A DNA stretch of 64,000 nucleotides from Psammoneis japonica (lineage: Eukaryota): contig QPGO01000073.1 of NCBI GenBank assembly GCA_008632985.1, forward strand, positions 310,001-374,000, written 5' to 3'. Below are positions 1 through 58,450 of the stretch, piece after piece. The translations under genes were made by a program, and so were the position numbers. How positions within the stretch are numbered: position 1 is the stretch's first letter; the number at the start of each line of letters is the position of its first letter. The notes under the pieces were generated by a model. The model was given only the letters and a program-made list of their open reading frames with translations, did no database searches and was not told the origin of the DNA.

Positions 1-1855
1 AAGAGTGCAGCTCTGACACCCTCACTGAGGAGAAATGCCAATTGAAAAATTGACTCACAGCAAATCTGATGAATGACTGTTGTGTGCAGAGGAGTCGTGC
101 GCATCACTGGATGTCAGGAAGCCCAGACAAAAGGCCAAAGTGGCACACACTGGTCCACCAGCAGTCATTGCCTGCATGACACTTCTCCAGAAAAAGAGAA
201 AAATGAGCCTTTGTGTGTTCTGCTCAACAGCGGAACATTGTCGACCACAATTTTGCAGAAGTTTGTGTGAAAATTGAGAATGAAGAAATCTGCTGCCAAA
301 ACTTGGGAAACCAAGGGTGGGCTCTTCACAACTGACAGCTGCTGTTCAACTCAGTTCTCATTGCCTGAATTTGACAAGCATGAAAAGAATGAAGCCACTG
401 TGCATGTGGACATCAGCGCTGCTTCTTCATGTTGCTGTGATGTGGTCATGGGACATGACTTGATGTCCAGTCTTGGAATTGTCCTGGACTTTGTGAGTGA
501 AGAAATTGAATGGGAAGATGCCATGACCACACCCATGAAGAACCCAATGCCATTTTGGATGCCAAAGTGTTCGCACTGATGGCCAGTCACATTGAAGAAT
601 CTCATGCTGTGAAAAGTCTTGATGACAGGATTGACAAAATCCTTGCAGCGACTGTCATGCTGCCAACCTCAATGATGCAATGGCTGCTGCAACTCAGCCA
701 ACTCCAGTGGAGCAGAAACAACTGAACTTCCTCCTAAAAAGATTGGAGCCCTTTTTTGTGGTTCTCCAGGCAAATGGACAGGGAAACCAGCGCATCTCAA
801 GGTGAAGCTGGGTGCATGTCTGCATCACATGATGTCATTTCCCGTCCACAAGCCTTGGAGGCAACCACTTGCCAGGAGGTTGTGAGACCATGCAAGCCAA
901 AAGTGCTAAGAAAAATGACCATTTGAGTGGGCAGCTCCAACCTTTGTTCAACCCAAAAAATGGCCAAGTTTGGTTTCCACCCAACTTCCCTGAACTGAAC
1001 AGTGGTCAATGCATGCACTGCATCCTCTGCCAGATGTTCAGGACATGCATCAGAAGCCAGAAGGTTTCAGGTGTGCAAACTCACTTGATTTAAACATGGG
1101 ACACCATCATGTCAAGTTGGTGCCATTTGCACAGCACTTGCACAATTGTCATGTTGTGGGGCAAACATGAACATTGCAGACCACCCATGGACATTTGTGG
1201 AGCTCCAGACATCTTTCAGGGGGCACATGAGTGAGCTGATGGCAGGTCCAGAGTTTGTCAGGATGCGTGTTGACACCACATGCCATGCACTGAAAAAGGT
1301 GACTTCAAAAACCACCTCTCAACACAGATGATCTTCATGTCGCTCAAACAAGCTGGTGTCAAGCCACCAGAAGTTGACTGCTTGGGCTTTCACATCACCT
1401 GAAATGGCGTTGAGCCAATGCTTGAGAAAGTGGAGCAGATTTGCTCCATTGCAACTCCTGCAACTTGCAAGGAATTGCAGTGTTTCATTGGTGTGTCGTC
1501 AATTGCTTTTGGGGCATGTGGCCTGGACGGTCTCATGTGCTGCCCCTTGGCCAGACTTGGATGAGCACAGAACAAAAAGCCTTCAAAATGTGAAGTGCAC
1601 TGTGTCAAAATGTGTGCTGTTGTCATGCCCAAATTTCAACAAACCCTTTAAGACACACACGCTGATGCAAGCAGTGCTCAATTGGGGGTGGTTGTGACAC
1701 AAAACAACTGACCCATTGCCTTCTGCAGTTGCAAGTTAAATGCACCAGTGCAGATGCACTGCACTGCAACAGAAAAAGAACTTCTGTCCATGGTTGAAAC
1801 ACTTGAGGAATTCCAAAACATCCTGTTTGACGCGTTCCAGCCCTGGCAGGTGGGA
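1..1855 (+). mobile_element. Degenerate Ty3/Gypsy LTR-retrotransposon pol fragment (protease-RT-RNase H), hypermutated
   Basis: Protease-like VLLNSGTLST (LLDSG), WETKGGLFTT and CDVVMGHDLMSSLGIVLDF (YD..GRDL). RT motif SLDLNMGHHH (LDLNMGYYH) at ~1081. RNase H motifs PNFNKPF, PIAFCSCKLN (PIAFYSRKLN) and EKELLSMVETLEEFQNILF. Many frameshifts and stops. Confidence 0.9.
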
Positions 1856-2051
1856 GCTCGTAGTGCTGACGTGTGACACAAATAATTTTTGTCATCCGTC
1901 GTATGTTTCGCACGTGCATTTCTACGTGTGACATTAAAAAAAAATTGTCCAGACTCGCTGTTTTGCGAAGCCCCAGACGTTTTACATGACGAATTTATAG
2001 AAACAACAATGCGCCACAGTTACATTCTTCAATGTCTGAAGAATGTAACTG

Positions 2052-5000
2052 GCTGCTCAAGGCTGTCCCCTCAGTCCTGCCTTTTCCTGCCTTGTTTTGG
2101 CTCACGCATTCCACCCCATCAACGATGAATTGTGTCATTGACTTCCTCCCCATTCCAAATCCGCCACCTCCTTGTGCATCGACAATGCTCACATCTTCCT
2201 TCCTTTCTCCCAGCTCCCTTGGTTCCTCAAATGACTTTCTGCTTGCGGCCCCCAATTTGGTGTCAAGCTCAACGCCTCCAAGACCCAAATCCTCACATCC
2301 ATCACCGGCTCCTCTCCCATCAACCGCCTCCCACCCACCAATGCTGCCGCACTCTCCAAAGCCCTGGCCTTCCTAAATCCTCATGACAACCCCCACATCA
2401 CACCCGAAATCACCACCGGCACCCACTTCCTCAGTCAACCCATCGGCTTGCCCACTTTTGCCCTCGATTTCCTTCACGACAAGGCCACCTCCTTTGCCAC
2501 CAACCTTCGCTGTCTCACCGTCCACCTCACTGACAAACAAACACAAAGCACGCTCTTCCGCAAGTGCTCCATCCCCTCCATCACCCACCTGCTGTCCAGC
2601 AACGCATGTTGCAACCTCATGCACTCCGACAACCTTCCACCCCCTTTTCAATGGACATCCTCCTTTTCACCGACAAAATCATCGGCCACTCCCTGTGCTT
2701 CCTCACCTGCCTCACCCAACACACCAACCCGTTCCCATCTGCCACCAAACTCATTGCCACCCCACCCATCTCCCTGGGTGGCATCGGATGCCGAGATGTC
2801 TCCACTGTCTCCATCCCTGCTCTAATCACCTCCCTCATCAGATCCATCCGCCATGACAGAAATCAAAGAAGAGCTGGATTTCGGCAGCCAACCTTCACGA
2901 TGAACAAGAAAATGGTGAACAGCAGCAGCGATTAAACCAGCAGCACAAATGCCAATGGATCACTCCATTCCTCGCTCGGGGAATGGAAATCTGTCAGTGA
3001 CAATGGTGCATTCTGGTGCGAATTCCAAAGTGGGCTTGGGTTCGAGTCAACACCAACCGCGTGTCTTGGCCGTCTGGGTGTCTGTGCATCTGGGCGTGCC
3101 ATCGTGGGCACAAGACCAGGCACCTCCACCTGGCCAGACTGAAAACTGTTCCTGACCCTGGAACACATGTCCCCATTGTTCACAGGGGCACCTGCAATGG
3201 TCTCTGAGCGGAGACTCATCTGCTGTTTAGACAGCAGCAAGGTGTTGCACCAGGTCTGGGCCAGAGTTCTACTTGCCATGTCCACCTGACGTCATCAACG
3301 CTCGAATGACGGAGAAGAACAAGAGCGAGTCATTCTTGTTCAAATCCTGTCAGATTAACAATCTCGATGACACTCGCAAATGCGACGAGCTCTCATCGAG
3401 TGACGAGAACGTCGCAAGGACACAAGTGCACAAGTGGTGGCCAGCTTCGATTCTGGGGTCCATTTGACAGCGAAGCCAGAAGCCACTCAAGAGAAATGGA
3501 AGAATGACATTCACAGTGTCAGGTTGATGGGGAGTGACAGAAATCAAAGAAGAATTGGATTTTGGTGGTCAACCTTAACACCAACCGCGTGTCTTGGCCG
3601 TCTGGGTGTCTGTGCATCTGGGCGTGCCATCGTGGGCACAAGACCAGGCACCTCCACCTGGCCAGACTGAAAACTGTTCCTGACCCTGGAACACATGTCC
3701 TCATTGTTCACAGGGGCACCTGCAATGGTCTCTGAGCGGAGACTCATCTGCCATTTAGACAGCAGCAAGGTGTTGTGCTGGGTCTGGGCCAGAGTTCTGC
3801 TCACCGTGTCTACCTGACGTCATCAACGCTCGAATGATGGAGAAGAACAAGAGTGAGTCATTCTTGTTCAAATCCTGTCACGCTGCACCAAACATGGCAT
3901 TCCACTCACCGGTGGTGCCATCTTCCACCTTCCCTCAAGCTGCTCTGCCACTCTCAGTTCATGGTCCAACCCTCGCTCCACTCTCTCCCCTTTGCCGCAT
4001 CTTCCGTCACTGCGCTCCCACCCTTCTTAGACTTGATTCTTCCTCCTTCACTTCTCTCACACACGCTGTCAAACACCACAACCTGCGCGGTCTCGCACAG
4101 CGCCTTCACCTGCACCATCACAAGCACAACACTCCCCCCCAATCCTTGCTGATCCTTCCATTCAACCGGCGCTCCCATCCTTGTTGTCTCCGCTAACAAG
4201 CCCATGCCTTCACTCCCTGTCCCGCACTCCCACCTCCAACCGCCTTCCGCCTCATCTCTTCACGATCCTCCTCCTGCACAAGCTCCGTCTTCCAATTGTC
4301 CCACCCAACCTCTCCCAACACAACTGCCCATGCGGCCATGCTCACCCCAACCCATGCGTCAATCACACCTTTGCCTGCTCCAAAATGCACAAAGGCCCCT
4401 TTGCCAAATCACATCCGTGACACTGTCCACACCATCATCGAAACCGTTGGCCCTCTGTGCGGTCTCTGTCTTTCTCGCCAACAAGTCTACCTCAACCCTG
4501 CTGGACTCCTGCCCGACCACCCTCTCAAACGCCCTGCCAACATCAGTGTCCAACTCACTCCGGGCTCTGCACCACCAAATGCCCCATCCACCCATCAATT
4601 CTCAGCCATCGATGTCACCGTGCCGCCAGCTCCCCCGCCTCCTGCACCTGGTTTGCCTGTCCCTGAAAACCCACTGAACAAAGCTCACCTCAGCAGCACT
4701 CGGGACAAGCTCCTTGGCCATTCTACATCCTCTGCTCATGGCTCCGACGTCATTGATGCCATCAACCAAGTGGGCCTCTTCCTCCTCCCTTTTGCCTTCT
4801 GCCACCTCGGAGGCATTGGATGTCACTTCCACATCTTCTTCTTTGGTGCCTCCACCACCACCTCCTCCTCCATCCCACCCCTTCCTCCCAAACTGCCCTG
4901 GTCAAGCCCATCCTCTTTATCCAATTTGCAAGCATCTTTCTCCGCCTTCACCAACTCACTTCTGGCTCCTTCCAACCTCCTCTCTCGCCCAATCCAATGC

Positions 5001-5297
5001 GGCCTGGAAACAACTTTCACCGGACCACTTCGGCTCCTCTTGTCATGCTGCAACACCCCCACTCTGGGCCTCCCAAATCCTCAGTCTCAATTTTGGCTTT
5101 GCTCTCTCCAGCTACCTTTCCACATGTCAAGCTTTTCTCCTCCGTCATCACACCATCACCAACTCCTCCTCACAACCGTCTGTCCGTACCCTCGGCCAAC
5201 CCTTCTTTCTCTCCATCCCCCAGCGCGCTCCGCGCGCCTCTCCCACCACCTATTTCCCCAGCCCAACACCTACCAACCCCATAGACACCATAAACAA
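2052..5297 (+). mobile_element. 5'-truncated non-LTR retrotransposon with RT, Zn-knuckle and restriction-like endonuclease (CRE/R2-like), interrupted by an LTR mini-element
   Basis: AQGCPLSPAFSCLVL (QGxPLSP) at ~2055. CIDN at 2175-2186 in place of YxDD. GVKLNASKTQIL and FLSQPIG. C-terminal CPCG..NHTFAC..NHIRD and RPANI..AIDVTV (PD..D RLE motif). Strongly C-rich strand. Ends are approximate. Confidence 0.85.
2854..3880 (+). mobile_element. Non-autonomous LTR mini-element (TRIM-like): LTR1 2854-3352, 182-bp internal region, LTR2 3535-3880
   Basis: Both repeats start TGACAGAAATCAAAGAAGA and end CAAATCCTGTCA (TGACAG...CTGTCA inverted termini). Purine tract GATGGGGAG lies directly before LTR2. 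The 5-bp flanks CGCCA / CGCTG are a mutated TSD. LTR2 lacks ~150 bp present in LTR1. Confidence 0.85.
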
Positions 5298-5376
5298 GCC
5301 TCAAGTCACGGGTTGAACTTCGAAAAGAATCGAGCTCGTGTTCTGCGACGAAGGTGCCTTGACCCACAAGAAGACA

Positions 5377-8300
5377 ATGAATGGACATCGGCGAGCGAGC
5401 CTCGGGCGTCTCGATTTTTCGGTCGACCGTCGGCTGTGAGGAAGAGCAGGGGAAGTGAATCAACTTCGGGGTATCTTTGACCGAATATGCGAACCCGAAG
5501 CACCCGTTCAAGTGTGCATGGTACACGGCTTGTCTGGAACGGGCAAGACGAGGCTCTGTAAGGAATTGACAAAGCACGTTCCGATATTTTTGGAAGGAAA
5601 ATTCGATCAATACGTCGACTTTTCATCGCCGTATTCGGCCATCGTTCAGGCCCTTGATGGGCTCGGCAAAGCTTTGCTGCTCCGAGAAGAGGACGATAAA
5701 GACGTGGAAGATTTTCGAAATGCTCTTTCTCTTGAAGGAAAAGTCCTCACCCGGTTGATCCCCAGCTTTGCTCAGCTCGTGCTCAATGAGGACTTGTGTA
5801 AGTCTTCGTCGGGAAACCTCAACATGGCCTCCGAACGCCTTGCTGTCGCCTTGCGGGCCTTCTTGCGCACCTTCTGCACGCAATCACGTCCATTGGTTCT
5901 GTTTATTGATGATGTACAATGGGGTGATCTTAACTCATTGCAGCTGCTGTCAGCTGCGGTTGCAGATCAAGAAACATATCATCTTTTGCTGCTGATGGGC
6001 TACCGAGATGAGGAGTCGAGCAGGATAGACTCGTTTCTTTCGTCGCTACCGAGTTCGGTTCACAATGTTCCTGTTAAGAACTTGAACACTGAAGCTTTAA
6101 ACGATATGGTGGCGGAGATCGTGTCTCGAGATCCCGACGACACAAAGGAACTGGCTGATCTCATCCACCAAAAGACGTTTGGCAACCCATTCTACGCTAT
6201 TCAGTTTCTGGAAGGTCTACAATGCGACAAACTGCTCACGTTTGATATAATGTCTGTGCGATGGAACTGGAAGATGGAAGAGATACGTTCCCAAACAGTT
6301 GTATCCGAGAATGTTGCCGACTATGTGACAAGAAGAATTATAGAATTGGACTATAAAGTCCAGCAGGTCTTACAGCTGGCCGCTTGTTTGGGCTTTCTCG
6401 TGGACCTACAGCTACTGCGAGATTTGCACGACTCATCATCCGAGTTCTATCCCGAGAATCAAACACCTGACGAATCACAAAAGGAGAATGAAACGGCGAC
6501 GTTTGACTCTTCTATGTCCGTCGCACAAGAAGAGAATCTCGTTGAGACTACGGATTTCCAGTGCAGGTTTGCCCACGATCGGATACAGCAGTGCGCGTAT
6601 GAGCTCATCCCAGCCGGCGGACCCCGTGAGCGGCTACACTTTGCAATCGGGTCACACATTTCTCAGCTTGGTCAGGATCGGTTTGTCTTTTTGGCAGCAG
6701 ATCAGCTCAATCGCGGTTCAACGTGTATCAAGAGTGATGCAGACCGACTCGCACTCATTCAATTGAACATTGACGCAAGCAAAGCTGCCCAGAAGAGGGC
6801 TGGCGTCGTTCTGGTGGCACAGTTTCTCTCCCGAGCTGTAGATCTGGTTAAGAGTTCTGACTGGGACAGATCGTACGACCTTGTTCTGGACCTGTACTGT
6901 AGTCTTGCCGAGGTCGAGTCGACTCGGGGAAATTTTGACGCAAGCAACGATTTGGTTAACACTGTACTGAAAAGGTCAAAGTGCGATAACGACACAGTCC
7001 GGGTATTGTCAGCTCGGGCGAAGGCACATTTTTCGCGCCTAGATTGTCAAGCAGCTATCAGAGACTCACGAACGGCGTTGCGTCTTCTCGGTGTTCGCGT
7101 GCCACCGTCGAACTCCCTTTTGCTCTATGTGGAGCTGAAGAAGACGAAACGGCTTTTAGGAAGATTCTCAGATAATGATCTCCTCGAGCTGCCGCCAATG
7201 AGAGATGTAGGCAAGGAAAAGGCTGTGATGATCTGTCTCGATTGTGCTGTTTACGCCTGGAGCAATGACGATCCGATCACGTACGTGATGTTCTGTCTTG
7301 GAATGATGAAACTGTCTCTCCTCTATGGAAAGAGCGACGCAACTCCACAGGCGTTTGGTGCTTATGCTGAAGTGCTTGCTTTCATGGGCGAGAAATCGCA
7401 AGCCTTCCGGTTTTCGCAGCTGGCCTTGAATTCCATTGCTTCTCGCAAGGCCATTCCTCCTACATATGTGTCTGCTTATTGCTTCGTCAATCACGTGAAG
7501 CTACCTTGTGCTCTGAGCATCGAGCCCATGCTCACCGCGTATAGAATTGGAATCGAAACTGGGGACATGCTGTTTGGGTGTATCTGTTTGGCTTTCTACA
7601 GTGACTTCTATAAGTTCTGTGGACTGCCCTTGGCACGTTTGCGTCGGATTTGCGTCGCTTTGCGGGTCAGCTCAAGCTTTGCCGTCAGACACTCATGCTT
7701 AGTATGATGTTGCCAAACTACCAGCTAGCGTTGAATCTGTCTGGGCAGTCGGATGATAGTGTTGAGATTTCATGGGACGTGATCAAGGTGCACGGATTCA
7801 TCAGTGAGAATGACGCGGATTTTGAGAACAATAATGCTACTATCGTTATTGATTACAACCAGATGTTTAATGCCTATATTCTCGGGGAACTGGAAATTGC
7901 TCGAGAGGCTCTCGATCGGAGTCTTGAGCCGTAAAATCGGACAAAGGAGGTTCGAGGGGAATCACTTTCTCAATTATATGTTTAACTTCCTCGATGGTTT
8001 TGTTGGACGTGAACTCTACGCTGTAACAAAGAAGCGACGATATCAGAAGGTTGCCGAGCAAGCTCTGCGATGGCTGACAAAGACAAATACGGTCGACACT
8101 TTTCCGCTTCGGCGTCTTTGGAAGCCCAGAAGGTGTCATTGTGCCGTTCTGTTGATGGAGAGACTGCTAGACAAGGTTACAACGAAGCCATTGCTCTTTT
8201 GGCACGCGCGGGTTTCACTCATTACTGTGCAATTGCGAACGAGCAGATTGGAAAAGTCATGCTAGTTTTGTTGGACCACGAATGGGCGGAGCACTACCTC

Positions 8301-10511: not shown

Positions 10512-13500
10512 ATGTATTCACAAAAGATGATGCAGAGGATCGTTACCAATGTTGCTCGTCGCCGCTCCCTTGCTTTGCGACGAACAGCTGTTGCTCCAGG
10601 CCTTTTTGCACGCTCCCTGTCGAATAGCACTGTCATTCCAGGAGTCGGTGGTGGCTTGTCGAGTATTGCAGAACCCAACCCTTCGCTCTTTACCGCTCAG
10701 GAAATGGGCTCTTCTGCGCCAAAACATGATGCAACAGCCGATGCAGCACAGTGGAGGCACGACGTTCGTGCCATGGGATCCGTCTTGGGTCAAATCATCA
10801 AGGGTCACGAAGGAGAAGATATTTTCAACAAGGTGGAAGAAATGAGGAATCTTGCCAAGGTGAGAATTGCAGATTGAAATTGTTAAATGAGGAATGTGCG
10901 TTTTTTGCTACTGCAATGTAATTATCAATCTCAATTTCTGTTCTTCACCCTGCGTCGCTTTTTTTAGGAATGGCGTGAGGAGGGTGCGGGTCGGAAAGAG
11001 AGCGCCAAGGGAGACCAAGCCTTTTCATCTCTTGTGGAGTTTGCATCGTCCCTGTCCAACAGTGAGCTCTTTACCGTGAGCCGTGCCTTTACGCATTTCC
11101 TAGCGCTCGTCAATGCCGCCGAGGGACATCATCGTGCACGCACCCTCAAGGAACAAACACTTCAAGGCAAGAGTCTGGGTGCGTTGAGCCCCAAGGAGGA
11201 TTCGTGTGGTGGAGTGTTGTCGGAACTGCTCGAGGAACATGATGCCGATACGATTTATAATGCTCTCATTAATCAAACGGTCGAACTTGTCTTGACGGCG
11301 CATCCTACCGAAGTCAACCGAAGGACCATTATTGATAAACACCGACGTGTTCAAGAGGTACGCTTATGCTATATATGGCCATGGATATTTTCGGCGCTTC
11401 CTCAATCTCACGATATCAATCTTTGTTTATTTTTGTAGCTCTTGACCAATGTTGATTTGCATCGCGACACGGGTGGCCTCACCGAGTACGAAGCTCACGA
11501 ATTTGATGACGCGATTAAACGAGAAATTGCATCCATGTGGCAGTCCGACGAGGTGGCACGTGCCAAGCCCACGCCACAGATTGAAGCCGAACGCGGCACG
11601 CTCGTGGTGGAGACTGTGCTGTGGGAAGCCTTGCCAAAGTTTCTTCGCAAGCTGAGTGCCACCATGGAACACACACTCGGAAAGGAATTGCCTCTGGATG
11701 CGGCGCCCATCAAGTTTGCAAGCTGGATGGGTGGTGATCGGGATGGAAATCCCAATGTCACGGCCGATGTAACTCGTGAAGTGTGCCTTTTCAAGCGTGC
11801 CAATGCCGCGGCACTTTTTGCCAAAGATTTGTTGCGTTTGCGAGGTGAACTGTCCATCAATAATTGCTCTGATGAATTGAGGAAGGCTGTCGGAGAAGAC
11901 GCAAGGGAACCGTATCGCCGATTCCTCGACCCGGTAAGGAATAATCTCAGAATGGATCATATGTTTGTCTCAAGTCAGTGTTCTGATAGTTGATTTTTGC
12001 CACTTTTTTTCATAAAGATGGTGAAAAAGCTTCAGCTGACTGAATCATGGGCAAAGCAGGAGTTGGATCGCCTCCACAAAAAAGCCGGTACTTCCGGCTC
12101 AGAGAGAATCGAATTGGATGATATTTACCTATCTAGAGATGAACTCATGGAAGAGTTAAAAATTGTGTACCGCTCTCTGTGCGATACTGGCAATGAAACG
12201 ACTGCCAAGGGATTCTTGACAGACATTATGCGGAATGTGTCAGCCTTTGGATTGACCATGGTGCCCTTGGACATTCGCCAGGAAAGCGACCGCCACGCGG
12301 AAGCTTTGGACGCCATTACGCGTTACCTAGGAGTGGGAAGCTATGCAGAGTGGGACGAGCAAACCCGAATTACGTGGATTCAAAAGCAGCTTTCCTCTAA
12401 TCGCCCATTGATCAGGCCTGGAGACTGGAATAATCGTCCCGATATTTTCTCAGACACGGCAATCGAAACTCTCGAAACGTTCCGTATGATTTCGGAACAG
12501 CATCCTGGCAGTCTTGGAGCCTACGTCATTAGTCAGGCTACGTCTTGCAGTGATGTATTGGCTGTACTTGTGATGCAACGTGATGCTGGGGTGAAGAAGC
12601 CTCTTCGCGTTGTTCCTTTGTTTGAAACTCTTGATGATTTGAACGGTGCTGAAGAAAGTATGGAGCGCCTGTTCAACTTGCCTGTCTACATGGGTAGCAT
12701 TGGTGGAAAACAAGAGGTTATGATTGGGTACTCCGATTCGGCCAAGGACGCTGGAAGACTCGCCGCCAGTTGGGCTCAGTACGAAACGCAAGAAAAATTG
12801 GTACGTTTGAAGGTGTTGTATTATTTGCTTTTTTCAACTTTTGAGTCGTTCAATTCCCCAACACCATTCTTTTAATTACTTCAGGCTGCTGTTGCGAAGA
12901 AGCACAACATCGAAATGACCTTTTTCCACGGTAAGGGCGGTACGGTCGGACGCGGAGGTAATCCAGCAACGTTCAACGCGATTCTTTCCCATGCTCCAGA
13001 CACGATTAACGGAAGATTCAGGGTCACTGAGCAAGGAGAAATGATTAACCAGAACTTTGGTCATGGCGACCGCGCCGAACGTACCATGGACATTTACACT
13101 GCTGCGGTCTTGGCTGAATTGTTGAGGTCTAGACAAAAGCCGTCTCAGGAGTGGAGAGAAATGATGGGGAAGTTGTCGGACATTAGTTGCGCCGCGTATC
13201 GCCGGGTTGTCCGCGAAGACGAGCGGTTTGTTCCCTACTTTCGGTCTGCCACTCCGGAATTGGAGCTAAGTAACCTCAACATTGGCTCCAGGCCTGCCAA
13301 GCGCAAGGCCACCGGTGGCGTCGAGAGTCTGCGTGCTATACCCTGGAATTTCTCGTGGTAAGTGTTCATGGTTCTGTGTTTTATTTTGAATTTCTGGGTT
13401 GTTTAATTGCTCAACACCATTCTTTTCGTTACTTCAGGACGCAGACTCGTCTCAATCTTCCCACTTGGCTAGGTGTTGGCGAGGCATTCGATGAAGTTAT

Positions 13501-33129: not shown

Positions 33130-33199
33130 GCATTCGTGACTTGCATTCTCGTCAGGGATTTCCAATTTCCAACTTTCGGTGTGCTGCTACGATGCAACC

Positions 33200-44799: not shown

Positions 44800-44915
44800 C
44801 GTGATTGCCGGTGCGCTCGAGACGGACGTTCCGGGCGCATCGAAAAGTGGTTGCACGTCAGTCTGTGTAGTCAACGAAGGCATTCATCGTGCAAACATTG
44901 GAGAAAAAGCAAAAA
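44800..44915 (+). pseudogene. Duplicated fragment of the HAD gene 3' exon (39657-39770)
   Basis: GCGCTCGAGACGGACGT..GGGCGCATCGAAAA.TGGTTGCACGTC..GTAGTCAACGA.GGCATTCAT is shared with 39669-39743. Confidence 0.85.
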
Positions 44916-45656
44916 CAAGTTGGGTTTCGCTTGAAGCAGAGAAAATAGCAAACTTAGACTACCCGGGGTTTTCTTGTGTCCTACCGTTGCAAACGCTTGT
45001 GCCCATAAACAAGGATGGGCGTCGTCAACAGCCAACAACCGTCTCGCATGTGCTTCCATCAAGAGAAACCTCGCGGATTCGTGGGCCTCTCCGATTGTAT
45101 AGTGCATCGGAATGCGCCCCGATCTGTCACTAGCGTTCAAATTTGCGCCTCGTTCAATCAGCAAGCGTTCGACATTTTCATTGTTGCCGATGCATGCGTT
45201 GTGCAGCGGGGTCTGTCCCGCTCTGTCCACTGCGTTCAAATCAGCACCATTTCGTATTAAGACCTCGACAACAGCGTCGTTCCCATTCAAGGCAGCTTTG
45301 TGCAGAGGCGTGGAGCCGCTGTTGTCTCTAGCATCCACTTCAGCACCATGCGACAGCAGCAATTGTGCTTTCGATGCGGGGTTACGAGCGGGAATGGAGC
45401 AACAAGCAATTTTGTGCAGCGGCGTAAAACCCGAATATGTCGAAACCTGGTTCACATTAGCACCGTATTCCAGGAGGAGCTCTAACATGTCGTCTTCTCG
45501 GACTCTAAGAGCTAAAAAGATTGGAGTTTTTAGAAACCCACCCAACCCCATTCGCGTTGCGTTCACGTCCTGTCCTGCTTCAAGGTTGCTTCGAACTCGA
45601 TCCACCTCTCCCCGTTGAACGGCATTAAAAAAATGATCATAACTGCTTCTAGCCAT
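44871..45656 (-). CDS. Ankyrin-repeat protein, copy 2 (C-terminus from antisense HAD fragment)
   Basis: Intact 261-aa ORF, closely similar to copy 1. Confidence 0.92.
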   Translation of the reverse strand: MARSSYDHFFNAVQRGEVDRVRSNLEAGQDVNATRMGLGGFLKTPIFLALRVREDDMLELLLEYGANVNQVSTYSGFTPLHKIACCSIPARNPASKAQLLLSHGAEVDARDNSGSTPLHKAALNGNDAVVEVLIRNGADLNAVDRAGQTPLHNACIGNNENVERLLIERGANLNASDRSGRIPMHYTIGEAHESARFLLMEAHARRLLAVDDAHPCLWAQAFATVGHKKTPGSLSLLFSLLQAKPNLFLLFLQCLHDECLR

Positions 45657-47249: not shown

Positions 47250-47850
47250 ACACTCCATTTGGTGTTGCTCAAGGCCTTTTAAAATCAACAGTTTGTTGTG
47301 GAGGAGGTGCTCTGCTCTGTGTTGCAGACCAGCCCCCTTTTAAGAACAAGAGTGGCAGTGAACACAGCACCATTTGTGATGAATTTTAGTCTGGCACACA
47401 AGCAGATCATTTTTTGCATGCTCTGACACAGAAACAAAGCAGTGCCACTCAAAGAACAACATGTTGCTGTCTTTCTGCAGTTGAAAGGAGAACAACAAAC
47501 ATGGGAAGAAAGGAACAAACAATCAATCGGACCTCTTGGGACATCTTGGATTCCACTTTTGTTGTAAGTGGTCAAACAAATTGGGTGCTGTTGAAGCAGA
47601 GAAAACAGCAAACTTGGTTTTTTCAGTTTTTTTTTGTGCCCCACTTTTGCAAATGCTTGTGCCCAAATGCCAGGACAGGTGTTGTCAACAACAACAGCCA
47701 ACAAATGTTTTGTGTTGGCTTTCATCAATGCCAAACTCATGGGTTTGGAGGCCATGTTGATTGCAAAATCAGTTGGAGTGTGCCCCCTGTTGCCACTTGC
47801 ACTCAAATTTGCAGCTCATCTAATCAGCGCATGTGCCACATTTTCATGAC
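47250..47850 (-). pseudogene. Ankyrin gene copy 3: heavily mutated 3' half plus downstream flank
   Basis: GIWAQAFAKVGHKKK..SLLFSLLQQHP. The flank aligns to 40410-40710 and 54450-54740. Confidence 0.85.
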
Positions 47851-49846
47851 CTGTCTCCATTCTTTGCTTCACTCAAATCAGCACAATCTTGCATCAAGAG
47901 CTCTGCAAGAGCATTGTTCCCACACAAGGCAACAAAACAAGATTGTGCCCATGCCCTGTCACACAAACAACACCTCAAGTCATGCTGCTGACATCATTCA
48001 AAGAGATGGCAAAAACACACAAAATGTGCCCACACTCACCTGGGTTGCTTGTCTGGGTCTTGCACACAACAAGCAGGGCACACAATCAATTTTCCAGCTG
48101 CTGCTTGGTCAAAGACTGACTTTTGCTCTGCAAGTGGCAAAAGTTGAGATGTTTTTGTGTGGCACATTGGCCACACATGTTGGCAACAAGATTCGCTCAA
48201 AATGTCATGGCTTCAGGCAAGAGAAGAAAATCAGCAGCAACACTTTGACACAGCAGTGGCAACTTGCCATTTTCATTTGACAAAGCCCACATGTTTTTAC
48301 CATGTGAACAAGGTGCTTGCCACCACACTGGCTTTGAGATCTCTGTTTTCCCAAGCAAGGGATTGAAGACAGCCTGCAGTGTGCGACTGTTGTGTGCACA
48401 TCCACAATTGTGTGTCATTTGCACGTCAATCGCACCACAGTCGTGGATGCGCACAAAGGACAGAACGATCACACAGAGTTGATTGGATGTCAAAAATTGC
48501 AATCGCACCTGGACAATCTGTTGTCACGATTGTGTTCTCTGAAAGGCCTTTTGTCTGCAGAAGCAGTGCAGAAGCTTCAGGCCATTGAGAACTCGTTCGG
48601 AGAAACCAAAAATCACAGAACAAAATTCAATCTCACAATTTCCACTTTTTGCACTTTATTCTGCTTTTGTTTGCACTCGTTCTTTGAGCACAGTGCAAGC
48701 CCAGTCAAAAGCAGTGTGAGAAGAAGCAGCAAAAATGAGCCCAGAAGGGGCCACCAGAGTGGAGGCAAAGAAGGGGCATGTGACACAGAGCACGCAGGGT
48801 GCTTCAAAAAAGAAGTGGGGGAAGAGTCCTTGGGAAGGGCAGAGAAAAAGCAAGGGGCACATGGGTGGTGAGATGATGAGCAATGTTGCAGCCCTGACTT
48901 GTCCCAGGCTTGGGTGCAGTCCAAACTTTGGCACAATTTTCAACAGTTGAAATTTGACAATTTTTAAATGTGTTGTTGTGGGCACATGCAGAAAGGTCTT
49001 GTGCATGCACACACATGCACTCAAAACTGAGGATGGACCCCAAGTTGTTCATTGCTGAGCTGCGCCACAAGATGAGAGCTTGGTCTTCCAACGAGTGATT
49101 TGAAGCTGTGCTCTTGTGTGGAGAAACAATGTAAATCAGTGTTCTCCTGTACAAACCAATTCTTGCATGATGCGTGTGGCACAAACACTCTTTTGTTCAA
49201 ATGCGTGAGAGCACAATTTGCTCTCAAAAGACGACTCTCAACAAAACATTCATTGAGCAACAAGTTTCAGAAGGCACAAGAAGAAGCAAAGCTCAGCCCA
49301 TGCAATGGTGTCAACTTTGGACCCTTTTTTGCTTTTTTGTCAGCACAAACAACTGACACACTTGCACCAGCTGAACCAAACGGCAAAACAGCTTCGAACT
49401 CTGTTTCAGGTGGTCGAAAAACGATGACAAAGAATCTAAAATCGAGGAGCTCCTGGCCTTGCTGTCATCCGCGACAAACTCGTCAGTTTTCGATCATGCA
49501 TTGAAAAAAGACACAAGCATCCGCAAGAATCCACCATGGTGCTCCATCCACGTTGCTGTGGTTGCAAAGTCTGCTTCCAACTCTGTGAAACATGCACATG
49601 AATGTTTGATGATGGAACGGTGTAATTGTTCCCTGGTGCAATGACGATGATCTTTGGGAAGCTTCAGTCAATCGTCGGATGCATGTTCACTGTGTGCTTC
49701 TGACAAAGCTGCTCCAGCCAAGCAAGTGGGTCAATCAGTTGCATTCAACCAAAAACAGCAAGCATCAAAAATGCCAATGACAGGAGATGGTGTTTTGACT
49801 TGATGTCTTTCTGTCATTGAACGAACCATCGGAAGGAAGAAACAAA

Positions 49847-50634
49847 TCAATCGGACCTCTTGCGCTTCCTGGGGTTCTGATCTTCTTGCTGCAAGGAATC
49901 AAACAAATCAGGTTTCTGTTGAAACAGAGAAAACAGCAGACTCAGCCTTCTTGGGGCTTTCTTGTGTCCCGCTGTTGCAAACGCTTGTGCCCACACACCG
50001 GGATGGGCGTTGTCAACAGCCAACAAATGTTTTGCATGAGCTTCCATCAAGAGCAATCTTGCGGGTTCGTGGGCCATTCCCATTGCAAAATTAATTGGAG
50101 TGCGCCCCGATCTGTCACTGGCACATTCAAATTTGTGCCTCGTTCAATCAGCAAGTGTTTGACATTTTCATTGTTGCCGATGCATGCTTTGTGCAACGGG
50201 GTCTGTCCTGCTCTGTCCACTGCATTCAAGTCAGCACCATTTTGCATCAAGAGCCCTACAACAGCATTGTTCCCTACTCCGGCAGCTTTGTGCAGAGGTG
50301 TGGAGCACCTGTCATCTCTAGCATCCACTTCGGCACCATGCGACAGCAGCAATTGTGCTTTGGATGCGGATCTAAGTCTGGCAGGGAAGCCAGCAATTTC
50401 CTGCAGTGGCATGCCCCCGAAAAGTGGTGTCAAAACCTGGTTCACATTGGCACCGCATTCCAGGAGGAGCTCTAACATGGCGTCATCTCGGACTCCAAGA
50501 GCTGCTGTGATTGGAGTTTCTGGCATGCCACCCAGCGGTGCATTCATGTCATGTCCTGCTTGAAGGATGCTTCAAACTCAATCCACCTCTTCCCATTGAA
50601 TGGCATGAAAAAACTCATGAGATCTGGTGGACAT
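49847..50634 (-). pseudogene. Ankyrin gene copy 4, moderately hypermutated
   Basis: Full-length homology to copy 2. CGA->TGA stops at 50580-50578 and 50574-50572, and a frameshift at ~50122. Confidence 0.9.
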
Positions 50635-51499
50635 GATTGTCTGTCGAGTGAATTTCTCACACTTGTTTGGCTGCGATGATGAGCTGGGACAGTGAGTCCA
50701 AAGTTGATGGCACAACGGAATGAAGTGTGTCTTGCCTGACTGAGCTGAGGTGATCAAGTCTGTCGTTCCAACAGGCAGACTAAACTGGATGAGGTCAATG
50801 CCATGCACAAAATGATGCTCTAGCCAGATGTTGTGAGAGGAGTGGCTCTGATCTGGAAAGTGATCGACAGCGTGTTGTGGAGAGCAAGAAGCAATTTGGG
50901 CCATGTCGATTGCTGTTGGAGTTTTTGTTTGCACTGCGTGGCACTTCTGCGATCAAAATGAAAGTTCAGTCGTGGTTTCTTGAATGATGCAAGTCCATTC
51001 AATCGTGAGAGGTTCTGTGCATGTGGACACAGGGAACGTGGGATGATTCCTGTCATGTGCCCCCCCCCCCCCCTTGAATCGAATGAGTGAAGGTGAAGAG
51101 ACATTCAGAAAAGCATTTGAGCCAGGAGACACCAAAGGGCACAATCAACCATGCCCAAGTCTTCTTGGCACCTTGAATTTTGTGAGAATGTCTGCAAGTG
51201 TTGTCATTCCTTGGGGCCCAAAAAGTCCCTCTCAAACACCCCCCCACATGTCTTTGTTTGAACTTGTCCCATCTGCTGGCCACTCATGCTCCTCCAACAA
51301 GCAGCAGCCTTGTTGTCCAGCAAGAGGATGAAAAGAGCAGCAGCAAGACATTGAGGTTCAATTGAGTGGGTCCACTTCTTGGCTCCAAGGCGGGTGAAAT
51401 CGCAGGCCAACATGTGTGGTGCAAAGAGGTCAGCAACAAGTGCTCACCCCCACAGACTTGGGCTTTGCACAAGACCTGACAGCAGGGGTCAGAACAATC

Positions 51500-53150
51500 A
51501 AGTTGAAGTCAAGCATTGCCCACCAAAGAATGCCACAAATCCAATGGTTGATCTGGTGGTGTTGGGATGGTCTCCTGTGCCAGCTCTTGCATGGTGTGAA
51601 TGCTGCAAAATCAGAACAGCTGATGTTGTGGGCCTTGCACTGCAGAGCAGGAGGCTCTTAGATGGATCTCTGACTGGAGCTTGATTGAAAAATCCTGACA
51701 CTTTCAAAGACAGACAGAAAGACAGACAAAAGCACCAAAGTCTTTCACACCAGAAGGTTCAGCTCAATTCCTGGCAAGCTTGCAGGTGGTTGACAGGCGC
51801 CGTCTGTGAGGGCACCCCAGGGGTGACACCTTTCTTCAATCTCCTTGCTCAGTTTTTTCCCAAAAATGCAGCGTGTGCACACACAAGAAATTGAATTTTT
51901 GTGTGCTTGCATGCAGTTTTTGTTTTTTGAGTGTCCAAAGATGGGTTTTTGGAAATGTGATCCAGCGCTGCACTTGATTGATGGGTTTTGTTTTTGCCTG
52001 GGGCCAAGGTGGTGACTCCACAAAAGAAACAACAAGGGGGCAAGTGAGTCACAAAAATGACCCAGGCTGGCTGCAGAAGATGGCATGTCCCACGCTCTGC
52101 CTTGTGCTGGGGCACCAGATCTGAGCTCATTGTTGTCACTTTGGAGGCAGTGTTGCCAGCATCAGAGGCACAAACATCAGAAAGGCTTGTGTCAACAAAG
52201 TTGTCATCTGCTGGGTTAGAATGAGAGCATTGTTGTCATTGACCAAGTCAGGGTTGTCCTGAAGCTTGCACTCAAGAAACGTGTTTGTGAGTGCAAGGGC
52301 TTTTAGCATCTGTTGAGTGGCCACCAAAATCTGTCAACATGTTGGTTGTGGCACTGGTCAATGTTGGCAGCACAGCCTGCTGGCGTGCTGCCAAACTGTT
52401 GTCTTGCCAACAGCAAACAAGAGGAAACAGTGTGTTCTTCATGCTCATTTTCTGTTGAGCCTGCACACTCTGCTCCCATGGTGCAAGGCTGTGCATTGGC
52501 TCCCCATGGTCTTTGCAAGTTTTGACACAGCTCCAAAGTTGAGTCTAATGTGGTGTGTTTGTTGCAGCCCAGGTGTTGTTCTGCCATGGTGACATGGCAC
52601 GTGGAAGGCACAGTCACCATGAAGATGAGCATGACAACGGGTGGCTGTGTGCACTCAAAAGGCAGGTTGTCACATGGGCTGCAGCATGGGCTTTGTCCTC
52701 AACCATGCAGGTGCAGTGCATGTTCAATCTCCAGCATGAGTGTGCTCACCCTGTGTGCACAAGCTCAAACTCATTTTGGGCACAAGGACCTTTGGCACAC
52801 AAAATTCTCTGTCAGCCTTGACCATGCCAAATTTAAAGCTGTGTCCCTGGCACACACACACATTCCAGTTGGCCATGGAGACCACAAATCCAAAGTAGAG
52901 GGTGATGCCAATGGCCATGAGGGAGTGGCCCTGGTTCACAAACATGATGTTCATTGCCAAGACCACTTTGCAGTGTCATTCAAAGATGGGAGTGAGCACT
53001 TTGGCAGCTTTGCCAATGACCAGGCATCTGGCTGATGCACGTTGTTGCCCTTTTAAGTGCTCCAACATTGTGGGAGCCAACCAAAGTTGTGACTGGCATT
53101 GGTGACATCTCAGCTTTTTGCCAGGCAATTGACCATCTGGTTCTGGCCCA
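51500..53150 (-). mobile_element. Degenerate Ty1/Copia (diatom CoDi-like) integrase region
   Basis: NCLAKS*DVTNA..VGALK (NCPVT..D..NA..GALKGKT), VLAMNIMFVN (L..DIMFVN), FKFGMVKADREF, GEH..EIE, LPF and WGANAQ (FGAYVQ). Boundaries approximate. Confidence 0.7.
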
Positions 53151-54741
53151 CCAGTGTTTCCCAGCAAGTGTGAATTTTGGTCAACCAAAATGGGCATTTT
53201 GGACAATCCCAAACACTTTGGTGGGCCAATTTGCCAACCAAATCAAATTGGTCACAACCATTTTGACATTTGCAAAATTTTGGCCAAACTCATTTCCTGC
53301 ATGTTTCTGCACACTGCCAATGCTGACACAGCTTCTGCAAAAATTGGTGCAGTGTGCCAACATGCTCATTTTCCAATGGAAAGATTTCCTCCAAAGTGCA
53401 CCAAATTCTGCCAACCAAAATGAAGTTCTCGGAAACAAAGTCATTTTTGTCAGGTGAGCTTCAGTTTTGTCAACAATTTCGCACTGACCAAAATGAATGT
53501 TTTGGTTGGCCAAAGCACACATTTGGGGTGCATCACAGCTGGGCACTTGTGTGCTTGGTCAGAAGGTGCCATGGTGTGATGTTGCTTGGCTTGCTCTCAG
53601 TCAGTTGCTTGGTCTGCAAGCACCATGCTGTGCTTGGTCATGGCAATGGGCACGGCACACATGCTGCCTCTTGTGGATGAGAACCTTGCAAGCAATCCAC
53701 GCACACAGTGAAAACTTTGAAAGCATCATCACTTTGGTTGTCAAGTGCACTTGACTCAACAGTGCAGCTGGACTGTGGCCAAACAAGATGAGGGTGGCAC
53801 ACCTGAAGTGGGAAGTGCCACGATTCTGGAGAAATTTGAGAAAAAAGGGAACTCACTCTGCCAACAAGGATGGTGCATGCTCATGCCCAACATCAGCGTG
53901 CCTCATTTTTAGTGGCAGATGTTTGGCACTGCATCACATCACTGTTTGGACGAGTGCTGTGAGGGCTCAGACCAACATGCTGGATGGGCTGCCCAATGAT
54001 TTTTTCGAGTGTGGCTGCTGCGACATTGGCAGCAAGCACTCCATTTGTTTCAAGCCTGAGAAACTGAGAATTTGAAGCTCTTCTCGGATCTTGAATTCGC
54101 AAGAAATGCAAAAGTGGAAAAAATGCATGTTTGAGAAAACCAAAGATTTCCAGTTCTGGATTGCTCGCAGCACAGGCTTGTTGAAGGAAATGAAGCAACA
54201 AGGCATTAGGAAAAAAAAAGGTTCAAAACGGACAGTGGATGGGCTGTCAAAATTGTGGGTGGTCGGATGTTTCAAATGTGGGAAGCTTAGAATGCGCAGC
54301 CAAAAACGAACTCTGCCGAACAAACAAGAAAGTAGACTCGTGTTCTTAACGATTTCAGACCTCTCTGCTAGAAGCAGCACAACAGCCAAAAATGATTCGT
54401 TTCGATTCTGCTCTTGTTGCGCTGCTCTTTTCATGAAGTTGCAAAATGGCAGGTTCCATTTGGCATTGCGCGAGTCCTTTTGAAATCCACGGCTTGTCGT
54501 GGTTGAGGTGCTCTGCTTCGTGCTGCATAGTCCGATTCCCTTTTAGGAACAAGAGTGACAGTGAATGTAGTGCAATTTATAATAGAATTTGAGTCTGGCA
54601 TAGATTGCAACACTCTGATACAGACTGTTCTGCTTTGGAATCCAATGTTTGTCGTGGGAAACAAACTAATGCTGCTCGAAGAACAACGTGGTGTCTTTCT
54701 GTCGTTGAAGGAACAATGAAACATCGGAAGAAAGGAACATG

Positions 54742-55531
54742 TCAGTCGAATCTTTGGCGTTTCATTGGATTCTGATCTTGTTGTAAGTACCCAAACAAGT
54801 CGGGTTTCGTTTGAAGCAGAGAAAATAGCACACTTAGACCACCCGGGGTTTTCTTGTGTCCGACAGTGGACAACGCTTGCGCCCATAAACCCGGATGGGC
54901 GTTGTCAGTGGCCAACAACTGTTTCGCATGAGCTTCCATCAAGAGAAATCTTACTGATTCGCGGGCCTTTCCGATTGCATAATAAATCGGAATGCGTCCC
55001 CTGTTGTCACTTGCATTCAAATTTGCACCGCTTTCAACCAGCACGCGTGCCACATCTTCATGTATGCCAATGCATGCGTTGTGTAGCGGGGTCCGTCCCA
55101 CTCTGTCGACTGCGTTCAGATCAGCGCCATTTTGTATCAAACTTCGGCAACAGCGTCGGTACCTCCGCGCATGGCAGCTGCATTCAGAGGCGTGGAGCCC
55201 CACTCATCTCTAAAATCCACTCCAGCCCCATGCGACAGCAGCAATTGTGCTTTGGAGGCGGGTCTATGCCCGGGAGGGGAGCAAGCAATTCTGTGCAGCG
55301 GCGCAACACTGTAACATGTCGAAATCTGGTTCACAACAGCCCCGTTTTCAGGAGGAGCTCTAACATTGCGTCTTCTCCGACTTCGAGAGCTAAAAAGATT
55401 GGAATTTCTAGAAACCCACCCAACCCTATTCGCGTTGCGTTCACGTCCTGTCCTGCTTCAAGGATGCTTCGAACTCGATCCACCTCTCCCAATCGAACAC
55501 CCACAAAAAAATCATCAGAACTGCTAGCCAT
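54742..55531 (-). CDS. Ankyrin-repeat protein, copy 5 (two frameshifts; error or young pseudogene)
   Basis: ORFs 55331-55531, 55137-55334 and 54742-55203 join into one homologue of copies 1 and 2. Confidence 0.82.
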
Positions 55532-55853
55532 GATGGTGTCAGTTGATTCTGTTTCTCACAATCCGTTCTGTTGTGATGATGAGGACAGAGCAAACCGTTG
55601 TGCCGTCGCAGCAATAATAGCGAAATAATAGTTGCGCTATGAACGTGGAACGCGGGGGTGGGTTTCAGCGTGGATTTCGCGCCGCCGTCGACCGAACGTC
55701 TATCTCACCAGCTTCTACGGACTCGTGTTTGGATTTGCTGGCGTCAGATTATGGGAGGGGCCGATGGATTCCCCCCCCCCTTCCTCACCAAACGCGAGGT
55801 TTTGCGCCGTGACGAGCGACGACAACACATAACAATACCGCATCTCACTTACC

Positions 55854-56779: not shown

Positions 56780-56929
56780 CAGCATTATACTACTTCTAAT
56801 CAAAATGTGTCCCGATCGCTGATTCAAACTCTCGAACTAATGTTTGGTCTGAGAACTGATTTGTTGTAAAAATGTGATATGAAAAGCCGTTCCCGATCCC
56901 AGCTCGGGAGACACGTGACAGAGCAAACG

Positions 56930-58450
56930 TGATGTGATGTCGACGGAATCCTTTCAGAGTGCTGAGTGCTGGTGCTGATCTTTGATGACACCAGGTACGA
57001 TGCTGTTCAACGTGCAGCAAGAGACTACAGCTGGCATTGATTGCTTGATTCCAATGACACTCGAGGGAAATCATCCTTTGGGGTGGCACTGGAAAGAACG
57101 GGACAGAATGCACGCATCATGTCTTCAAAGGTTGGTTAGACTGCAACAGTGGACCTGTCTCCCTGCAAATGGCAGTTTGCTTTGTTTCCCAGAGACATTG
57201 CTCAGCAGAAACCTGGGCCATTTCTTGCAGCATGACAATCAGCACACTGGATCACCCAAAGGTTTTTCTCTTTCTGGCCTTTGCCAGTGGCCAAATGCAT
57301 CAGGCTTTGTCACTCTACATTGCATCATCTGCTGGAATCTTCACCAAAAGACAGAAGTTGAGCAGGCATCCCACACTTTGTGAGAAGATGCCAGCTCTGC
57401 AGCCGTTGCAGGAGAACTTTGCAGACAAACCTGTGAACTCAGAGAGAGCTTTGTTTTTGTCTTGGCCGGCTTTGCACCAACATCTTGAAAATGCTGCTTG
57501 GCATCAGCTGCAGCAGCACAAGTCTCATCACAGTTGATGTTGTCATTGACCCACAAGAGCATGTCACAAATCTCATCAACCATGGCACAATCTCTGGCTG
57601 GCTGGTGCTGTCATTGGCACCTGGAAATGCCTTGGTCAACTGTGAGTCAGGGGGGAAGGTCATTTGCTCATGGCACTGGGTTGCATGTTGGCACATGCAA
57701 GCTTGTTTCACAAACACTGTCTGTCTGTTGAAAGCACAGTTGGCAGTGGTGTGTCGCTGGGACTTGGTGGCAACAGCAGCCACCAGATCGCCAGAGCAGA
57801 GGACTTTTCAACCACTTCAAACAGCAGCTCTTTTGACAGCAAACTTCAGTGAACCAGTGCCCTTGCAAGCTCAGCAGCACTGTGGGTGGGCACGTCAACA
57901 CATGCCATTCTGGCAACTCAACAAAGCTGCAGTGCGAGCATTGTGGCTGACGACAGCAGTTGCCCAGAGGAGGCTTGTGATGGAAGACAGATGCACATCA
58001 TTGTTTGCTGTGCTGCTCTGACATCACTGTGCAACATCCATGTTGTAGCAGCCAGTGCTTGGCTGGTCATTCTTGCACAGTGTGGTGCCCTGCAGAGCTG
58101 TGTCCTCACTCCAATTGGAGCATGATCGCTGAAAATCCAGCCAAAACTTGTCATGTCACAAAACATCATGTGAGATGCAAACAAGCAATCATGATGTGGT
58201 CAATGTTTGCCAAATGAGAAACCCATGGATCAAGCAAGATGGAGCTCCATGCCAGGCATCATGTCACTCTCCTTGATGCACAGAACGAAAAGGAGCCGCT
58301 GCCGGAGGTGAGAGACACAAGAACGACATGCATGCTGTGGAAATGCACAGCAAACCTGCCAAACAATCTCTTTAGAATCAAATCAGCACCCTTCCTCTTT
58401 TCTTTCGTTGCTGAATCTCTGTTCTTGGGGCATGGACAGTGGAGAGGCAT
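56930..58450. mobile_element. TA-depleted degenerate repeat block
   Basis: Same dinucleotide signature, lying between two normal genes; family not recognisable. Confidence 0.55.

Follow-up and report, generated by a model that had tools for sequence, protein, structure and literature searches.

Blocks depleted in TpA and CpG in a diatom genome point to two in-place transition processes

Composition and gene content of the locus

We analysed a 64,000-bp stretch of DNA (the window) from Psammoneis japonica, corresponding to positions 310,001 to 374,000 of contig QPGO01000073.1 (assembly GCA_008632985.1, forward strand). Ordinary genes alternate in it with seven blocks in which the dinucleotide TA (TpA) is nearly absent, CG (CpG) is reduced and TG/CA is abundant. 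A preliminary description of this DNA had reported seven such blocks, totalling ~25 kb. A 500-bp sliding profile of observed/expected ratios (o/e) for TA, CG and TG/CA, with block limits refined by TA-free runs and change points, recovers all seven within ~300 bp of the earlier coordinates (Table 1). The transitions at their borders are sharper than the step of the profile. Together they cover 25,415 bp and contain 92 TAs, against ~1014 expected when the 1539 TAs in the 38,585 bp outside are scaled to the same length.

On passing from normal sequence into a block, TA o/e falls from 0.4–0.8 to 0–0.1 and CG o/e from ~1 to 0–0.5, while TG/CA o/e rises from 1.0–1.3 to 1.6–2.1. The pooled ratios inside and outside are 0.06 and 0.57 for TA, 0.30 and 1.01 for CG, and 1.76 and 1.18 for CA/TG. 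TA-free runs inside the blocks extend up to 1293 bp, which is not due to chance because the TA frequency outside is ~4%. At the block borders, TA per bp steps between 0–0.004 and the 0.027–0.054 of normal DNA. The genes between the blocks use TA normally, with o/e of 0.49–0.63, as the preliminary description had stated.

The losses and gains balance. As fractions of all dinucleotides, TA drops from 0.0399 outside to 0.0036 inside and CG from 0.0555 to 0.0181, a joint deficit of 0.0737, and CA/TG increases from 0.1469 to 0.2199, a surplus of 0.0730; the two agree within 0.001. The total of pyrimidine–purine (YpR) steps is conserved (0.225–0.253 inside, 0.235–0.254 outside). Thus, both self-complementary YpR steps, TA and CG, have been turned by transitions into the non-palindromic YpR step, TG/CA. 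Since the TA and CG conversions offset each other, the GC content of the blocks is nearly constant (0.47–0.55). Open frames of 200–300 codons abound in the blocks, on both strands and in all six frames; these long spurious frames arise because TAA and TAG stops are missing there.

The host is a diatom rather than Bigelowiella, the alga discussed below, because all named nearest homologues of the phosphoenolpyruvate (PEP) carboxylase exon of the window are from diatoms (60–76% identity), among them Stephanodiscus, Ditylum, Odontella, Nitzschia, Thalassiosira and Skeletonema. The other ordinary genes encode a class-I peptide chain release factor, a pseudouridine synthase, a lipase, a HAD hydrolase, a short-chain dehydrogenase, a bestrophin, an MFS/SPX transporter, a STAND NTPase and ankyrin-repeat proteins.

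Table 1. Features of the 64,000-bp window (positions in bp from its first letter).
Feature	Position	Strand	Location	Remarks
Block 1	1–1861			Open at the left end of the window; TA o/e 0.04, CG o/e 0.16
Block 2	2046–5113			TA o/e 0.09; weaker CG loss (o/e 0.53)
Block 3	18290–20971			Holds the 1293-bp TA-free run; CG-depleted core 18443–20756
Block 4	26590–33078			TA o/e 0.06, CG o/e 0.35; CG-depleted core 26747–32787
Block 5	42094–43695			Left limit 41949/42094; TA o/e 0.04, CG o/e 0.31
Block 6	45740–54528			Largest block; right limit 54207/54528; TA o/e 0.06, CG o/e 0.27
Block 7	57137–58373			Limits 56879/57137 and 58373/58608; TA o/e 0.06, CG o/e 0.22
Ankyrin copy N1	40600–41560	-		Unmutated paralogue, comparator
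Ankyrin copy N2	44800–45760			Unmutated
Ankyrin copy N3	54640–55610			Unmutated
Ankyrin copy M1	49750–50700	-	Block 6	Partly converted
Ankyrin fragment M2	47228–47930	-	Block 6	Heavily converted
MYND-family gene relic	27723–28553	+	Block 4	Hypermutated; best homologue E 6e-60
304-bp direct repeat pair	3049–3352 and 3577–3880	+	Block 2	
284-bp tandem duplication	19233–19794		Block 3	4 TG↔CA doubles
186-bp tandem array	30499–31004		Block 4	Within the high-copy repeat
High-copy repeat	29341–31608		Block 4	Class unassigned; summed contig depth 900–6500 vs ~55–60 elsewhere
Open frame	2235–2822	+	Block 2	Weak reverse-transcriptase-like lead only; Atlas feature score 0.92
PEP carboxylase gene	10968–13921			Five exon-sized frames split by short introns; lineage marker

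Read support and block content

Read support was drawn from k-mer contigs of one coded public sequencing run (X1) with a word depth of ~52–60. The run contains 80% of the words sampled from positions 25001–35000, and its contigs span blocks 3 and 4 in pieces of 0.5–6 kb that agree with the window. In the piece covering 23577–29657, 24 letters differ in 6081 b (~0.4%, single-base indels included). The choice between TG and CA is the same in the contigs and in the window, site by site and over kilobases. Being built from accurate reads, the contigs provide strong, though not fully independent, support for the bases of the blocks. Among 40 of the 124 differences between the window and X1, two are TG↔CA doubles within blocks (18955/6 and 20325/6), and the TAs of the window at 19584 and 27457, also within blocks, are TG or CA in X1. 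These differences hint that the TpA process is recent or ongoing.

Contig depth in X1 also reveals the high-copy repeat of block 4. Outside this repeat, blocks 3 and 4 are single-copy at an identity of at least 90%. We screened 213 block-overlapping open reading frames (ORFs) of at least 70 aa against Pfam, except for four that merely extend into a block from the normal DNA beside it. At E ≤ 0.01, none matched a family of transposons or reverse transcriptases; the only matches inside the blocks are an ankyrin relic and a weak zf-MYND. Six block frames rescreened at E ≤ 10 gave nothing relevant, and the open frame listed for block 2 has neither a Pfam match nor a homologue in a word-index protein search. 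The identified content of the blocks consists of two ankyrin gene copies, a MYND-family relic, the high-copy repeat, internal tandem and direct repeats and the weak reverse-transcriptase lead. The preliminary description had seen transposable-element relics or duplicated genes in every block with recognizable content; the duplicated genes and repeats are indeed there, whereas the transposable elements found no support in the Pfam screen.

Direction of change in the ankyrin array

An ankyrin-repeat gene unit occurs in five copies within 39645–55800, three of which look intact while two are dead and lie in block 6. The intact copies (N1, N2 and N3) are mutually 80–83% identical over 800–1200 bp and are all unmutated. 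Sites where all three agree define the ancestral state for the block copies M1 and M2.

At M1, 6 of the 8 ancestral TAs have changed, every one of them to CA or TG (Fisher p 8e-4 against 77/427 for other dinucleotides), as have 17 of the 26 ancestral CGs, 14 of them to TG or CA (Fisher p 4e-7). All ancestral TAs and CGs of M2 have changed, 3/3 for TA and 9/9 for CG, the CGs exclusively to TG or CA. When each normal copy is compared in the same way with the other two, TA is changed at 3/11, 2/10 and 4/12 sites, with no excess. Counted over alignments of normal to block sequence, TA→TG/CA outnumbers the reverse by 78 to 4 and CG→TG/CA by 135 to 18, figures that are ~3-fold pseudo-replicated since up to three paralogues enter each comparison. 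The preliminary description had proposed that a second process, beside CpG decay, converts TA to TG/CA on both strands; the polarization in the ankyrin copies supports this, as do the repeat doubles described below.

M1 lies in a less-mutated island of block 6 (50.0–50.75 kb, TA o/e 0.17–0.20). Before each ankyrin unit lies a fragment similar to the 3' end of the HAD hydrolase gene (39159–39884).

A hypermutated MYND-family relic

The relic in block 4 is a full-length member of a family of ~277 aa whose C terminus carries a MYND finger (HMMER, 166 proteins matched at E ≤ 0.001). In an alignment with 14 homologues, the relic agrees with 74 of the 95 conserved columns and departs from 21. All three conserved Tyr columns are altered, now reading Cys (TGC), His (CAC) and His (CAT), and the relic has no Tyr at all, against 4–13 in the homologues. 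An invariant Ile has become Met (ATG) and a Leu has become Ser (TCA), both of which fit TA→TG/CA. Conserved Arg residues are replaced by Trp (TGG), Gln (CAA) and His (CAC) through CG→TG/CA, and a conserved Pro by Leu (CTG). The change of conserved Tyr codons to Cys or His, claimed in the preliminary description, thus holds where it can be tested; the ankyrin family has no conserved Tyr column and is uninformative on this point.

The first 200 residues of the family have no Pfam model, and members occur in NCBI, Logan, JGI and MMETSP transcript data. In one homologue (P0130), Cys and His occupy two of the three conserved Tyr positions; this protein, too, might stem from a partly hypermutated gene copy, in a different genome. 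A single-protein scan of viral contigs, a weak test that reaches close relatives only, found no viral relative of the family.

Changes in place and on both strands

Repeats within the blocks record changes that postdate their duplication. The two copies of the 304-bp direct repeat in block 2 differ in 14 mismatch columns, which comprise 4 TG↔CA doubles, 2 TA↔TG/CA, 3 CG↔TG/CA, 1 other transition and no transversions; 13 of the 14 columns are YpR transitions. The tandem arrays of blocks 3 and 4 (284-bp and 186-bp units) contribute a further 4, 3 and 2 TG↔CA doubles. Such doubles are expected where one ancestral TA or CG is resolved independently on opposite strands. The TA→TG/CA and CG→TG/CA changes therefore arose in situ, after duplication, and on both strands.

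In agreement with this, TG and CA are about equally frequent in six of the blocks (TG/CA counts of 225/207, 263/286, 720/733, 196/176, 966/948 and 141/161). The order of TG and CA shows no strand runs in the blocks (z from -1.9 to +2.6) and hence no sign of processivity. Together, these results exclude editing of a single RNA strand and processive action on one DNA strand.

Block 2 is atypical. It has a GC content of 0.55, a C-rich + strand (37% C vs 18% G) and a moderate loss of CG, and it contains 348 CAs vs 217 TGs, with a CA surplus in nearly every 300-bp bin. The block directly adjoins the 5' side of the frame for the STAND NTPase (AAA_16/NB-ARC + TPR, 5440–7704).

Flanking bases and specificity

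The TAs that survive in the blocks are not a random sample. With Y for pyrimidine and R for purine, YTAR accounts for 62 of 92 TAs inside the blocks and for 280 of 1545 outside (p 3e-23), and it is the commonest or joint-commonest class of survivor in all seven blocks (in block 7 by a tie, with 1 of 3 survivors). Relative to the density outside, TA survival is 1.1% for RTAY, 3.6% for RTAR, 6.2% for YTAY and 33.6% for YTAR; TTAA alone reaches 53%. A model in which survival is the product of independent outcomes on the two strands gives a per-strand survival of 0.104 where the A is followed by a pyrimidine and 0.58 where it is followed by a purine, and predicts 0.060 for the mixed classes, near the observed values. 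The data fit a process that strikes each strand independently and prefers TAY (RTA on the opposite strand) ~4-fold over TAR. This flank rule is new here.

The frequency of AA/TT is 0.1615 inside and 0.1636 outside the blocks (ratio 0.99), while that of TA falls 11-fold (ratio 0.09). Since AA/TT is constant, the process is specific for TpA and not for WA in general (W, A or T). The ratio for AT is 0.78, which we attribute to neighbour effects. CG survival in the blocks follows the usual pattern, lowest in WCGW (22–26%) and highest in GCGC (73%).

Domain edges

The change points for TA and CG lie 6–322 bp apart at 13 edges, and 30–322 bp apart if only the 12 that border on long normal stretches are counted, with an uncertainty of roughly 50–100 bp in each change point. 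At 8 of these 12 edges the TA-depleted stretch outreaches the CG-depleted core by ~140–320 bp, or one to two nucleosome lengths. The excess was noted at the blocks 18290–20971, 26590–33078, 45740–54528 and 56879–58608, as though the TpA mutator spread slightly beyond cytosine methylation. Within the blocks, TA and CG counts are uncorrelated (rho 0.22, p 0.13).

The blocks occupy intergenic space and end where intact genes end. An alignment of the N1 and N3 units places the right edge of block 6 (TA change point 54207–54528) inside a duplicated ankyrin unit. This edge and the unmutated ankyrin copies mean that homology alone does not define the domains. The preliminary description had called the loss of TA repeat-restricted: the blocks do hold repeats and duplicates, but three ankyrin copies of 80–83% identity are untouched, an edge falls within a duplicated unit and most block DNA is single-copy at an identity of at least 90%. 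By analogy with Phaeodactylum tricornutum, in which transposons are described as carrying DNA methylation and H3K9/H3K27 methylation (PMC4504042), the domains may be methylated or heterochromatic, and the mutator would be recruited to silenced chromatin rather than by the pairing of repeats.

Relation to known systems

The preliminary description knew of no account of a process converting TA to TG/CA, a view that has been overtaken by experiment. In 15 mutation-accumulation lines of the chlorarachniophyte Bigelowiella natans, Mettrop et al. report 302 new mutations, of which 231 lay in two regions of integrated viral DNA; 230 of these 231 were A→G or T→C, all at TpA, at a rate of ~6e-7 that exceeds the background by three orders of magnitude (~1000-fold; bioRxiv 10.64898/2026.01.13.699255). 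The same preprint describes 124 clusters in the B. natans genome that are depleted in TpA and enriched in CpA and TpG, with an excess of transposon-type domains, and its authors propose adenine deamination with an ADAT2 homologue as the candidate (bioRxiv 10.64898/2026.01.13.699255). We found no description of TpA loss in diatoms in a full-text literature search; one candidate paper (PMC9258296) proved irrelevant. The diatom studied here is thus a second lineage with this TpA signature.

The likeness to B. natans, as far as the preprint describes it, includes the products (TpA→TpG and TpA→CpA), the confinement to discrete regions beside normally mutating DNA and the existence of long-term clusters of TpA loss and CpA and TpG gain that are rich in unannotated or transposon-like sequence. 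The host there is a chlorarachniophyte, here a diatom, that is, a stramenopile. TA o/e is reported as 0.45 in the B. natans region derived from a nucleocytoplasmic large DNA virus (NCLDV), whereas here it is near saturation at 0.06. Integrated viral DNA is the target described there, while the recognized targets here are ankyrin and MYND gene copies and a high-copy repeat. CpG decay coincides here with TpA loss, and the term 'CpG' occurs 0 times in the main text of the preprint; that main text likewise makes no mention of diatoms or of flanking bases, for which we find the TAY/RTA rule. The rate was measured directly in B. natans; what is seen in the diatom is the mutational footprint.

Repeat-induced point mutation (RIP) of fungi such as Neurospora shares with the blocks a heritable, transition-only mutation of DNA segments with sharp edges and some spill-over, as well as the killing of duplicated genes and repeats. 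RIP, however, converts CpA to TpA, creating TA and raising the AT content, whereas here TA is destroyed and the GC content stays at 0.47–0.55. It is also triggered by duplication, with a lower limit of ~400 bp and ~80% identity, whereas here copies of 80–83% identity are untouched and an edge lies inside a duplicated unit. We therefore rejected membership in RIP: TA is lost and not made, duplication is not the trigger, and most block DNA has single-copy depth. The decay of methylated CpG resembles the second component of the blocks in its CG→TG/CA products, in a CG o/e of 0.30 and in the WCGW/GCGC survival pattern, but it cannot remove TA, and the TA-depleted domain exceeds the CG core at 8 of 12 edges. 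ADAR and TadA/ADAT enzymes, like the process inferred here, cause A to be read as G and have T or U immediately 5' of the target. The natural site of TadA is U-A-C-G, which fits TAY. These enzymes act on RNA, and ADAR editing affects only one strand of the product; to our knowledge, ADAR is confined to metazoans.

In other diatoms, no TA-depleted block was seen at the 12 diatom-like loci (~72 kb) among 80 metagenome PEP carboxylase loci, a sample far too small to bear on distribution. A 68% GC, bacterial-type metagenome contig (L079, positions 1401–2200) has a TA o/e of 0.15–0.18 and a TG/CA o/e of ~1.55 with normal CG, probably a mere effect of high-GC composition.

Mechanism and alternative explanations

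The blocks are very probably silenced intergenic domains of the diatom genome in which two transition processes have acted in place, CpG decay and a nearly complete TpA hypermutation, whichever enzyme carries out the latter. On this reading, the domains would be silenced intergenic DNA holding a high-copy repeat, tandem repeats and dead copies of multigene families. One process would be the ordinary decay of CG to TG/CA, presumably from 5-methylcytosine. The other would be a TpA-specific hypermutation of TA to TG or CA, acting on DNA, on either strand and at each site independently, with TAY favoured ~4-fold over TAR. As the chemical step, we tentatively propose enzymatic adenine deamination in DNA: a deaminase recruited to silent chromatin may convert adenine to hypoxanthine, which is read as G. 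We favour adenine deamination at TAY because of the independent hits per strand, the strict specificity for T before A and the precedent and candidate enzyme in B. natans.

Several points weigh against this interpretation. The chromatin state and the chemistry are deduced from the sequence, and, TA being palindromic, A→G on one strand looks the same as T→C on the opposite one. The flank rule presumes that the blocks formerly had the TA contexts of the surrounding DNA. A direct test of its products on paralogue alignments is small and fits only in part: YTAY gave TG 3/CA 0, as predicted, and RTAR gave CA 10/TG 6. In block 2, CA is well above TG and CG loss is moderate, such that the two processes are not strictly coupled. 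The weak test described above brought up no viral origin for the targets, unlike the two B. natans regions. Finally, no sequencing platform is recorded for X1, a run that possibly stems from the assembly's own sample.

The palindromic nature of TA bears most directly on a rival in which thymine is the target. A TET/JBP-type dioxygenase, or another enzyme, would turn the T of 5'-RTA-3' in silenced DNA into 5-hydroxymethyluracil (5hmU) or 5-formyluracil, which mispairs with G and leads to T→C; all of our results fit T→C in RTA equally well. We nevertheless consider this route unlikely, given that 5hmU opposite A is weakly mutagenic and that no diatom data were found. In dinoflagellates, 5hmU is described as enzymatically made and linked to transposon silencing (PMC11572971), and studies of the 1980s are cited as placing it preferentially in TA and TC contexts in Crypthecodinium, against which stands the lack of sequence preference given for Breviolum in the same source (PMC11071213). 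An origin of the pattern in sequencing or assembly, in which modified TA and CG sites are misread as TG or CA, would be in keeping with the ~0.4% difference between the window and X1, single-base indels included, as expected of a long-read assembly, and with the unrecorded platform of X1. It is very improbable, however, as the k-mer contigs repeat the same TG or CA choices at ~52–60 depth, and miscalls would produce neither codon-level Tyr→Cys/His changes in an alignable relic nor a flank rule matching a per-strand product; they would give chimaeric calls rather than the absence of both CG and TA.

Among mutators acting on DNA, the preliminary description had put forward a Y-family polymerase of the Pol-eta type (WA→WG), engaged in error-prone repair at methylated chromatin. 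Pol eta does make A→G errors after T, but WA includes AA, and AA/TT holds steady while TA falls 11-fold; nor would patch repair be expected to convert one dinucleotide nearly completely. We give this proposal very little credence. The same holds for a route through RNA, in which ADAR-like enzymes edit A to I in retroelement transcripts and the edited copies are then reverse-transcribed and inserted. ADAR favours G on the 3' side, whereas the 3' preference here is for a pyrimidine. Editing of transcripts is also at odds with the near equality of TG and CA, free of strand runs, in 6 of 7 blocks, with the in-place TG↔CA doubles of neighbouring repeat copies, and with the involvement of host gene copies and of a block edge inside a segmental duplication. 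In its favour are the weak reverse-transcriptase lead in one block and the preference of ADAR for U before the edited A noted in the B. natans preprint (bioRxiv 10.64898/2026.01.13.699255). An explanation with no special mutation process at all would see in the blocks foreign or selfish DNA of intrinsically TA- and CG-poor composition, or selection against TA. Some mobile DNA has odd dinucleotide signatures, yet this explanation retains next to no probability: host paralogues show polarized conversion, conserved codons have been turned into disruptive residues, and repeat pairs diverge almost only at YpR steps, with losses and gains in balance.

Implications

Hypermutation confined to TpA mirrors fungal RIP, and as far as our literature search shows it has been described only once so far, in the 2026 preprint on a rhizarian alga. 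Its saturated signature in a diatom suggests that the process is peculiar neither to one species nor to viral inserts, and its tie to domains with CpG decay points to recruitment by silent chromatin. The flank rule (TAY/RTA, with independent hits per strand) is a constraint that any candidate enzyme must reproduce. For genome annotation, gene finders would call spurious block proteins with abundant Cys and His but no Tyr.

More speculatively, it is possible that diatoms carry a chromatin-guided double-stranded DNA adenine deaminase acting at 5'-TAY-3', a natural adenine base editor, which with cytosine methylation would form a two-armed heritable defence that permanently scrambles repeats and gene duplicates once they are silenced. 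Chlorarachniophytes would then share this system, which might be old and widespread in the stramenopile, alveolate and rhizarian (SAR) lineages. Diatoms are ecologically dominant, transformable and gene-editable, so that the enzyme becomes findable, and a natural sequence-specific DNA adenine editor would be of interest both for the biology of genome defence and for base-editing technology.

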